Shown here piece by piece: positions 1 to 1,956 of a stretch of 2,537 nucleotides of DNA (position 1 is its first letter; every line of letters starts with the position of its first letter). The DNA is from Escherichia coli. GTDB taxonomy: Bacteria; Pseudomonadota; Gammaproteobacteria; Enterobacterales; Enterobacteriaceae. The translations under genes were made by a program, and so were the position numbers. The stretch is taken from the NCBI RefSeq assembly GCF_003334385.1, contig NZ_QOWN01000099.1, one strand, 5' to 3'. The notes under the pieces were generated by a model. The model saw nothing but the letters and a program-made list of their open reading frames with translations, did not search any database and was not told the origin of the DNA.

Positions 1-1908
1 CGGACGCTGACGCTCGACCGTGAAATCACGCTGCCATCCTCCGGTACCACGCTGATAAGCCTGGTTGACGGAAGTGGCAATCCGGTCAGCGTGGAGGTTC
101 AGTCCGTCACCGACGGCGTGAAGGTAAAAGTGAGCCGTGTTCCTGAGGGTGTTGCTGAATACAGCGTGTGGGGGCTTAAGCTGCCGACGCTGCGCCAGCG
201 CCTGTTCCGCTGCGTGAGTATCCGTGAGAACGACGACGGCACGTATGCCATCACCGCCGTGCAGCATGTGCCGGAAAAAGAGGCCATCGTGGATAACGGG
301 GCGCACTTTGACGGCGAACAGAGTGGCACGGTGAATGGTGTCACGCCGCCAGCGGTGCAGCACCTGACCGCAGAAGTCACTGCAGACAGCGGGGAATATC
401 AGGTGCTGGCGCGATGGGACACACCGAAGGTGGTGAAGGGCGTGAGCTTTATGCTTCGCCTGACCGTGGCAGCGGACGACGGCAGTGAGCGGCTGGTCAG
501 CACGGCCCGGACGACAGAAACCACATACCGCTTCAGGCAGCTGGCGCTGGGGAACTACAGGCTGACAGTCCGGGCGGTAAATGCGTGGGGGCAGCAGGGC
601 GATCCGGCATCGGTATCGTTCCGGATTGCCGCACCGGCAGCGCCTGTCACTATTGAACTGATACCGGGGTATTTTCAGATAACGGCGGTCCCGAAACTGG
701 CTGTATATGACCCGACGGTGCAGTTTGAGTTCTGGTTCTCGGAAAAGCAAATTATTGATATCAGGCAGGTTGAAACCAGCGCGCGTTATCTTGGTACGGC
801 GCTGTACTGGATAGCCGCCAGTAGCAATATTAAGCCGGGTTATGATTATTACTTTTATATCCGCAGTGTGAACACCGTTGGCAAATCGGCATTCGTGGAG
901 GCTGTCGGTCGGGCGAGCGATGATGCGGAAGGTTACCTGGATTTTTTCAAAGACAAGATAACCGAATCTCATCTCGGCAAGGAGTTGCTGGAAAAAGTCG
1001 ACCTGACGGAGGATAACGCCAGCAGACTGGATGAGTTTTCGAAAGAGTGGAAGGACGCTAACGATAAATGGAATGCCATGTGGGGCGTCAAAATTGAGCA
1101 GACCAAAGACGGCAAACATTATGTCGCGGGTATTGGCCTCAGCATGGAGGACACGGAGGAAGGCAAGCTGAGCCAGTTTCTGGTTGCCGCTAACCGTATC
1201 GCGTTTATTGACCCGACAAACGGGAATGAAACGCCGATGTTTGTGGCGCAGGGCAATCAGATATTCATGAACGACGTGTTCCTGAAGCGCCTGACGGCCC
1301 CCACCATTACCAGCGGTGGCAGTCCTCCGGTATTTTCCCTGACATCAGACGGAAAGCTGACCGCTAAAAATGCGGATATCAGTGGCAGTGTGAATGCGAA
1401 CGCCGGGACGCTCAACAATGTCACGGTAAATGAAAACTGTACGATTAAGGGCATGCTGGAGGCGACTCAGGTCAGAGGTGACTTCGTTAAAGCTGTATCC
1501 AAATCATTTCCGAAACAGGCTGGTACGTGGGGTAATACGGAAACACCAAACGGGACGGTTACAGTCACCATCAGCGATGATCATAACTTTGACCGTCAAA
1601 TCATTATTCCGCCCATTATCTTTAACGGAATAGCGTATAGCGATCCGGGAAGTGGTAATAACCCGGGAGGTACAAGATACACGGGGTATGGTTTTGAAGT
1701 TCGCAAAAACGGTGTATTAATCGCATCCAGAGAAACTAAAGGGGCCATTCCCGGTAGCTACAGTGCGGTTATTGATATGCCGAGTGGCAGGGGAAGCGTC
1801 ACTCTGGAGTTTAAGGTTTTCCATAAAGGCAATCAGCGGGCAGGTAATATCACCGACTGTACGGTGATTGTGACCAAAAAAGCCGCTTCCGGCATCAGTA
1901 TTCGTTGA
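1..1908 (+). CDS. J: Phage tail-tip central fibre / host-specificity protein J, C-terminal ~636 codons (5'-partial; the gene starts upstream of the window)
   Basis: Frame +1 is open from nt 1 to the TGA at 1906-1908. The GTG at 91 reported by the ORF track is internal, since the frame has no stop upstream of it. The translation contains two fibronectin-III-like beta-sandwich segments (e.g. ...[27 protein letters not shown]... and ...[23 protein letters not shown]...). It also contains a segment (...[69 protein letters not shown]...[13 protein letters not shown]...) that I recognise as characteristic of lambda-family J proteins. It ends ...[10 protein letters not shown], whereas lambda J as I recall it ends ...KKQALGISVV. 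Its position immediately upstream of lom matches lambda genome order. Confidence 0.9.
346..915 (+). other. Two tandem fibronectin type III-like (Ig-like beta-sandwich) domains within J (approx. 346-630 and 631-915)
   Basis: Each ~95-aa segment has the alternating hydrophobic beta-strand pattern with a conserved Trp/Tyr core and ends with a Pro/Ala-rich linker ([12 protein letters not shown] at the first boundary). Boundaries are approximate and read by eye from the translation. Confidence 0.45.
1459..1908 (+). other. C-terminal receptor-binding domain of J (distal tip, host-range determinant); allele appears divergent from lambda
   Basis: In lambda-family J proteins the last ~150 aa form the receptor-binding domain. 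Here this segment (...[149 protein letters not shown]) keeps recognisable anchor motifs (DDHxFDRQI, IDMPxGRG, GIS at the terminus) but differs at most other positions from my recollection of lambda J. Hand-counted GC is ~46% in 1501-1620, against ~62% in 1-120. Confidence 0.5.
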
Positions 1909-1929
1909 AATTGTTATAACCCATATAAG

Positions 1930-1956
1930 GGCACCAGAAATGGTGCCTTTTTTATT
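1930..1956 (+). terminator. Rho-independent (intrinsic) terminator downstream of J
   Basis: Perfect 7-bp inverted repeat GGCACCA (1930-1936) / TGGTGCC (1941-1947) with a GAAA tetraloop (1937-1940), followed immediately by TTTTTTATT (1948-1956). It lies 22 nt after the J stop codon. Confidence 0.6.

Follow-up and report, generated by a model that had tools for sequence, protein, structure and literature searches.

The window studied here, i.e., the whole stretch of 2,537 nt of Escherichia coli DNA that was analysed, contains the 3'-terminal portion of a gene J of the lambda type, followed by the beginning of lom. The reading frame that starts at nt 1 of the plus strand (frame 1) stays open until a TGA codon at 1906-1908 and encodes 635 amino acids (aa). 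In a phmmer search, aa 1-634 matched residues 503-1131 of lambda gpJ (PDB 8IYK, chain J) with E = 0 and 1105 bits, and aa 1-635 of the window align with gpJ 503-1132 from end to end, large gaps being absent; the matching phage and E. coli sequences are annotated in their records as host specificity protein J. At the nucleotide level, the best match was a prophage of E. coli SCU-104 (99.2% identity), with 96.9% identity to phage Perceval and ~95% each to lambda h434 and to 434, and relatives of the stretch were present in 4942 of 5426 complete E. coli genomes. Given these close phage and prophage matches and this wide presence, the stretch is an ordinary lambdoid prophage J-lom junction of E. 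coli, which displays the following features:

1-1908, plus strand: 3' part of a lambda-type gene J (tip attachment or central tail fibre protein), recognized from the open reading frame and phmmer
1-321, plus strand: hub end (extra beta-sandwich in HDIV and long HDIV-FNIII linker), lambda gpJ 503-609
322-636, plus strand: FNIII-1 (Ig_J, PF24421), aa 108-212, lambda gpJ 610-714
634-645, plus strand: inter-domain linker APAAP, with two invariant prolines at nt 634-636 and 643-645
640-948, plus strand: FNIII-2 (Ig_J_second, PF24489), aa 214-316, lambda gpJ 716-818
919-1077, plus strand: alpha-helical shaft, lambda gpJ 809-861, 90% identical to lambda
1030-1410, plus strand: central straight fibre, beta-prism (Phage_Tail_Tip, PF09327, aa 344-470), Pfam E 3.6e-33
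1495-1905, plus strand: C-terminal receptor-binding domain (Ig_GpJ_C, PF12421, aa 499-634), Pfam E 1.2e-25
1927-1950: terminator-like hairpin between J and lom
1978 onwards: lom, partial, with its ATG at 1978 and running off the end of the stretch

The hub end is 98% identical in amino acid sequence to that of lambda; in gpJ, whose domain names and ranges were taken from PMC10721106, the sandwich spans residues 483-569 and the linker follows. This HDIV-FNIII linker lets the fibronectin type III (FN3) pair swing out, both in lambda (PMC11101478) and in T5 (bioRxiv 10.1101/2022.09.20.507954). Downstream of the pair, the shaft helices of lambda form a bundle of three, which holds the three FNIII-2 domains together and refolds upon receptor binding (PMC11101478), and the beta-prism of the window (nt 1030-1410), which matches PDB entries 8JVM, 8XCJ and 9WCA, is the element that the original prediction had referred to as the conserved distal stem. 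The receptor-binding domain displays 96% aa identity to 434 J versus 36% to lambda J and is therefore of the 434 type; for this reason, the predicted receptor is probably OmpC rather than LamB (PMC3509688). The hairpin between J and lom coincides with a terminator annotated in phage 434.

Other features of the window were also assessed. No Rfam family was matched in the stretch, and two minus-strand open reading frames (99-380 and 399-524) were discarded, being contained within that of J and lacking support. A lone promoter-like site (minus strand, 872-845) did not exceed the number expected by chance (2.0 ± 1.5), and promoter-like and terminator-like counts were in general at chance level, the J-lom hairpin excepted.

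Boundaries and fold of the FN3 pair

Two consecutive FN3/Ig-like beta-sandwiches of ~95 residues each had been proposed from the sequence at nt 346-915, which correspond to window aa 116-305 and lambda gpJ 618-807. A Pfam-A search identified one dedicated family for each: Ig_J (PF24421; E 2.3e-42, 143.7 bits, model positions 1-104 of 104) and, immediately behind it, Ig_J_second (PF24489; E 3.6e-38, 130.2 bits, positions 2-104 of 105). The envelopes of these matches jointly cover nt 322-948 and are thus slightly wider than the proposed interval, by ~25-35 nt. The same two families are found in lambda J itself at residues 610-714 and 716-818, in the order and with the spacing observed here, and FNIII-1 lies in both proteins after the HDIV linker and directly ahead of FNIII-2. 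As had also been proposed, the pair precedes the distal stem, with the helical shaft and the Phage_Tail_Tip prism directly downstream.

In order to examine the fold, an alignment of 32 homologous sequences reaching down to 26% identity (alignment A1) was used to build an AlphaFold2 monomer model of aa 101-320, which reached a mean pLDDT of 89.1 and a pTM of 0.72. FNIII-1 was modelled as seven beta-strands between aa 120 and 209 with pLDDT above 90, and FNIII-2 as seven strands between aa 217 and 305 plus one short inserted helix (aa 254-260); a further helix begins at aa 309, downstream of the FNIII-2 core. The beta-sandwich cores thus extend over ~nt 358-915 and, taking model and Pfam matches together, each domain comprises ~95-105 residues, in agreement with the proposed size. 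Several residues of this fold are strongly conserved among the 32 homologues: the fold-defining Trp W139 (strand B, nt 415-417) and Tyr Y186 (strand F, nt 556-558) of FNIII-1 are invariant, as are N291, G294 and S296 of FNIII-2 (N191, G194 and S196 in alignment A1), whereas Y283 is conserved in ≥90%. The last four belong to the motif Y..R.VN..GKS at nt 847-888, with its N..G.S turn at nt 871-888, and the two invariant prolines of the inter-domain linker are columns P112 and P115 of the alignment.

When the model was compared with the PDB using Foldseek, the top matches were lambda gpJ chains (8IYK, 8K35, 8XCI and 9E7M; E 1e-33 to 2e-29, 94% identity), followed by neogenin FN5-6, titin A77-A78 and fibronectin Fn7B8 (E ~4e-9, probability 1.00); FN3 tandems of LAR, NCAM and contactin also had a probability of 1.00. 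There were ~480 matches at E ≤ 0.001 and, below the lambda chains, the 50 best were nearly all tandem FN3 pairs.

These data also bear on whether a beta-rich sequence could resemble FN3 domains by chance, with no real domain pair behind it. Such a reading might draw on the generic fn3 model (PF00041), which stayed below significance here (E 0.1 at aa 126-199 and E 6.4 at aa 275-297), as well as on the weak likeness between the two halves (BLASTP E 0.008, 27% identity over 49 aa), but it is at odds with E values of 1e-38 to 1e-42 for the dedicated families, with 94% identity to FN3 domains solved experimentally, with a model pLDDT of 89 and with Foldseek probabilities of 1.00 against many FN3 tandems. 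We consider it next to impossible, and refuted by Pfam, AlphaFold2 and Foldseek alike. Since the generic model is below significance, the domains were assigned to this fold from the dedicated families and from structure; precomputed Pfam lists of many close homologues do include PF00041, the score not being given. The identification of nt 322-948 as FNIII-1 and FNIII-2 of a lambda-type J is thus confirmed, far beyond chance, and the pair is itself already known, with solved structures and Pfam families of its own.

Copy number of the pair among J proteins

Variation in the number of these domains between lambdoid J alleles had been proposed as well. The 274 proteins fetched were scanned with iterated profiles of each FN3 domain, and 273 gave a match. 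Exactly one FNIII-1 adjoining one FNIII-2 was found in 195 of these 273, and another 73, all of them fragments, had one domain only. Four matches came from giant proteins, judged by their match pattern only not to be J, three of which carry arrays of 7-23 repeats; in the giant protein P0194, two FNIII-1-like matches were obtained at E < 1e-5 and ~20 at E < 1e-2. An apparent three-domain allele (P0121, FNIII-1/FNIII-2/FNIII-1) was rejected: it lies on a 2783-nt contig on which J is split into six open reading frames, and the two copies of FNIII-1 in it belong to different alleles, so that it is most likely an assembly chimera.

Among the near-full-length J-like proteins, which include those of lambda, 434, Stx2-1717, PhiR12_2, S137, mEp010 and 9g, the adjacent pair with one domain of each type was present in 28 of 28, down to 28% identity, and its position was conserved (~605-815 or ~465-660). 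Likewise, a tblastn search with the pair against 50,697 phage records located 513 places in 508 records, which indicates that it is not duplicated within a J gene. These results show that the FNIII-1/FNIII-2 count is constant at two among the informative J-like proteins sampled, all of which carry one domain of each type, contrary to the proposed variation. A recent internal duplication was also rejected as the origin of the pair, as the two domains display just the low BLASTP similarity given above, and no DNA repeat linking them was found other than chance matches of 14-18 nt; this weak mutual similarity, together with the absent repeat, points to an ancient pair rather than to a recent tandem duplication.

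A constant count is likewise informative on the possibility that the domains are passive rigid spacers, merely setting the distance between hub and receptor-binding domain. Before structures became available, FN3 repeats were regarded as possible linkers (Goulet et al., 2020, PMC7291167), and five FN3 domains are indeed strung along the central fibre of T5. A role in setting length predicts, however, that the count varies with the length of the fibre, yet it is fixed at two, and the length differences are found instead in the coiled-coil shaft, as in mEp010 J, and in the C-terminus. The mEp010 protein (1707 aa) has an extra ~575 aa between FNIII-2 and Phage_Tail_Tip; no extra FN3 domain was detected in its C-terminal 908 aa, which gave just Phage_Tail_Tip and weak coiled-coil-type matches. 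Moreover, solved structures show these domains closing the tube and moving on triggering, and a spacer role thus appears very unlikely.

Some variation exists in FN3 domains other than this pair, and across distant families. An N-terminal insertion, FNIII-A, is present in lambda and was undetected by Pfam in 9g J; neither FNIII-A nor the five-domain variation of T5 concerns the FNIII-1/FNIII-2 pair of lambdoid alleles.

Sequence divergence and mosaicism

Differences from both lambda and 434 are concentrated at nt 601-840, a patch starting approximately at the FNIII-1/FNIII-2 junction. Counted in bins of 60 nt, nt 601-720 display 23-24 differences versus 0-4 in most neighbouring bins, with the exception of nt 421-480, with 7-8. 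Synonymous divergence from lambda increases accordingly along the gene, with dS values of 0.04 at nt 1-321, 0.10 in FNIII-1 and 0.34 in FNIII-2. A large break from lambda occurs from ~nt 1441 onwards, leading into the 434-type receptor-binding domain, and the J protein of Stx2-1717 is 60% identical in FNIII-1, 87% in FNIII-2 and 35% in the shaft.

The original prediction had related mosaicism of J to differences in domain count. The mosaicism is real, but judging from these alignments it arises as stretches of sequence are replaced, the joints falling at domain borders and the copy number being unchanged. Length differences between the J proteins sampled lie in the helical shaft and in the receptor-binding domain.

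Predicted role as a gate of the tail tube

In lambda gpJ, two Ig-like domains of the FN3 family come after four hub domains and are joined to HDIV by a long linker (Xiao et al., PMC10721106). In lambda, T5 and F-type pyocins, the FN3 domains form a closed cone that seals the tube and swing out upon receptor binding (PMC10721106; PMC11101478; bioRxiv 10.1101/2022.09.20.507954; PMC12874032). The open-state mechanism of lambda was established in vitro with LamB: upon binding of this receptor, a twist moves upwards through the beta-prism and the helices of the bundle refold; the FN3 strings of the three subunits part, two and one to opposite sides, and come to lie perpendicular to the hub; the channel is then opened to ~3 nm by the hub domains together with the gpI plug (PMC10721106; PMC11101478). 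The movement is as in lambda both in T5 pb3 (bioRxiv 10.1101/2022.09.20.507954) and in the F7 pyocin (PMC12874032). The lambda gpJ structures matched by the window cover the closed tip (8IYK, 8K35 and 9E7M) as well as the open state (8XCI).

Since FNIII-1, FNIII-2, the linker and the shaft are 97%, 91%, 98% and 90% identical to those of lambda, and since lambda structures (94% identity over aa 101-320) and analogous T5 and F-pyocin structures have been solved, we infer that the FNIII-1/FNIII-2 pair encoded by nt 322-948 in this prophage lambda-type J very probably acts as gate and lever of the tail tube. Under this interpretation, the three FNIII-1/FNIII-2 strings of a J trimer would be packed round the tail axis; on triggering, they would move apart and pivot to the side by means of the long HDIV-FNIII linker, whereupon the hub domains would rotate, the gpI plug would fall away and the tube would open for DNA ejection. 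It is assumed that, with a 434-type domain binding OmpC, the signal follows the same path as in lambda with LamB.

Codon comparisons are in agreement with a constrained function. The dN/dS ratios were 0.13 for FNIII-1 and 0.19 for FNIII-2 against lambda, and 0.04 and 0.18, respectively, against 434, which supports that both domains evolve under purifying selection.

In the original prediction, such domains were described as often dispensable for assembly and as weak binders of surface carbohydrates that aid adsorption; read in this way, the pair would be an accessory decoration of the fibre shaft, with weak binding to carbohydrates such as LPS as its main role. Ig-like and FN3 domains exposed on phage particles have widely been proposed to act like this, and PMC10721106 raises carbohydrate binding for gpJ as a generic possibility, citing Fraser et al. 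(2006); in addition, the opened FN3 strings lie beside the hub near the outer membrane, where contact with LPS is geometrically conceivable (PMC11101478). Nevertheless, the published lambda, T5 and F-pyocin structures place the domains in a tube-closing cone on the tail axis, sealing the tube instead of projecting from it, and carbohydrate binding by gpJ FN3 domains is unreported in the tail-tip literature cited here. The columns conserved among the 32 homologues are generic determinants of the FN3 fold, without a recognisable ligand site, and no conserved surface motif outside the core was found in alignment A1. Furthermore, dN/dS ratios of 0.04-0.19 and the presence of exactly two copies in each homologue sampled argue for an indispensable structural part; taken together, the low dN/dS, the predicted on-axis position and the fixed count argue against dispensability. 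We therefore regard the decoration role as unlikely, and favour the gate and lever.

A second, allele-specific role following the swing-out, in which the domains would contact LPS or the porin rim and thereby steady the tail on the cell, the patch at nt 601-840 being an adaptation to cell surfaces and not neutral recombination, appears quite improbable. Docking of the side tail fibres on the pair was also considered and rejected, since the Stf collar of Ur-lambda binds gpV and gpM, not gpJ (PMC12617516).

Beyond correct annotation, the significance of these findings is small, as near-atomic descriptions of the domains, of how they fold and of the way they gate the tube in lambda have existed since 2023-2024, and Pfam has families dedicated to them. 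The useful correction is that they constitute a fixed pair forming the tail-tube closure, very probably also in this prophage, and not optional decorations of variable copy number; the diversity of J alleles in this region stems from recombination joints at domain borders, from helical-shaft length and from the receptor-binding domain.

Comparison with known systems

Counterparts of the pair include eukaryotic FN3 tandems such as those of neogenin (4BQC), titin (3LPW) and fibronectin (5N47), which have in common with it the fold, the head-to-tail arrangement and the signature residues, i.e., the strand-B Trp, the strand-F Tyr and N..G.S. They differ from it in their low identity (12-18%), in an rmsd of 9-12 Å over both domains, which reflects another inter-domain angle, and in their unrelated biology. 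The central fibre protein of F-type pyocins (F2, PDB 25VF; F7, PMC12874032) also carries FNIII-1 and FNIII-2 after the hub, although these are bacteriocins, not phages, and are distant in sequence: the phmmer match to 25VF (E 2.5e-10, query aa 1-196) comprises the hub end and FNIII-1 only.

Phage T5 resembles lambda in that the C-terminal FNIII pair of pb3 comes after HDIV through a long linker and stabilises the closed tube, and in that the strings dissociate two and one to either side on receptor binding. In T5, however, the three strings are separate and form no tight cone, and three further FNIII domains are found in pb4, giving five FN3 domains over two proteins (bioRxiv 10.1101/2022.09.20.507954).

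Lambda gpJ, solved in PDB entries 8IYK, 8IYL, 8K35, 8XCG, 8XCI and 9E7M, is like the protein studied here in the family, position and order of FNIII-1 and FNIII-2 (~610-818) and in the flanking HDIV linker and shaft, with 3 substitutions in FNIII-1 (97% identity) and 9 in FNIII-2 (91%). The two are set apart by the diverged DNA patch at nt 601-840 and by the receptor-binding domain, which here is of the 434 type, not the LamB type. The J protein of phage 434 (OL657226, CPT_434_21) is collinear with the fragment throughout, and the arrangement of J, terminator and lom is alike; identity reaches 98% in FNIII-1, 90% in FNIII-2, 97% in the prism and 96% in the receptor-binding domain. The start of FNIII-2 is nevertheless approximately as distant from 434 as from lambda (dS 0.36), and this distance from both points to a segment derived from a third lineage.

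Mosaicism along the J gene

The coding sequence of the two tandem FN3 domains, FNIII-1 and FNIII-2, was compared with the lambda and 434 alleles by difference counts per bin, which delimited a diverged patch with its onset at about the junction of both domains:

Window 601-840: diverged DNA patch

Most bins near this patch contain 0-4 differences per 60 nt, with the exception of nt 421-480 (7-8), and 23-24 differences were counted at nt 601-720 with respect to lambda and 434 alike. The dS values with respect to lambda are 0.04 (nt 1-321) and 0.10 (FNIII-1) on the upstream side, and increase to 0.34 in FNIII-2. At the sequence level, this segment looks like a small recombination patch, whose source would be a third J lineage.

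Two further segments of the gene were delimited:

Window 349-417: imperfect inverted repeat (arms 349-367 and 399-417) within the FNIII-1 coding sequence
Window 1495-1905: receptor-binding domain of the phage 434 type

The repeat arms are 79% complementary with a spacing of 31 nt, and probably represent a chance match. Downstream, the J of the window departs from lambda at about nt 1441, and its receptor-binding domain displays 96% amino acid identity with 434 J and only 36% with lambda J; given this 434-type domain, OmpC rather than LamB is the predicted receptor (PMC3509688).

Domain-wise mosaicism was also found in the J of Stx2-converting phage 1717:

L003 (comparison locus) 2195-5674: phage 1717 J

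Its identity to the window changes stepwise, with 60% in FNIII-1, 87% in FNIII-2, 35% in the helical shaft and 65% in the prism, thus placing the mosaic joints at domain borders.

Length and domain number among J proteins

Homologous J genes and ORFs from other loci:

L006 2183-7306: phage mEp010 J (1707 aa)
L007 2579-5668: phage 9g J
L008 1131-2426: ORF of protein P0121 (431 aa), domain order FNIII-1/FNIII-2/FNIII-1

mEp010 J harbors roughly 575 additional residues between FNIII-2 and Phage_Tail_Tip, and since their Pfam matches are weak and only of coiled-coil type, a greatly lengthened helical shaft is suggested; even longer representatives are P0202 (3530 aa) and P0265 (2783 aa). In 9g-type J proteins, Ig_J and Ig_J_second lie about 140 residues nearer the N-terminus, and Pfam gave no match to FNIII-A_GpJ (PF24801), which in lambda J occupies aa 86-207; therefore, it is the FN3-like insertion at the N-terminus that varies, rather than the tandem pair.

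P0121 was rejected as a three-domain J: two prophage J genes were probably joined in a chimeric assembly, as its contig has only 2783 nt, with six ORFs making up a broken J, and its second FNIII-1 is a different, lambda-like allele. Four giant proteins (P0191, P0194, P0237 and P0250; 1610-3356 aa) display long tandem arrays matching the FNIII-1 profile, with about 13-23 copies at E < 1e-2 and fewer at E < 1e-5; judging by match pattern alone, we take these not to be J.

The J-lom junction

Window 1906-1908: J stop codon
Window 1927-1950: terminator-like hairpin, 10 bp stem followed by a T-run
Between hairpin and lom ATG: GAGAGG ribosome-binding site
Window 1978: lom ATG, the gene continuing past the window end (2537)

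The lom product is an Ail/Lom outer-membrane beta-barrel, and this J-hairpin-lom layout (1906-2537) is identical to that annotated in phage 434.
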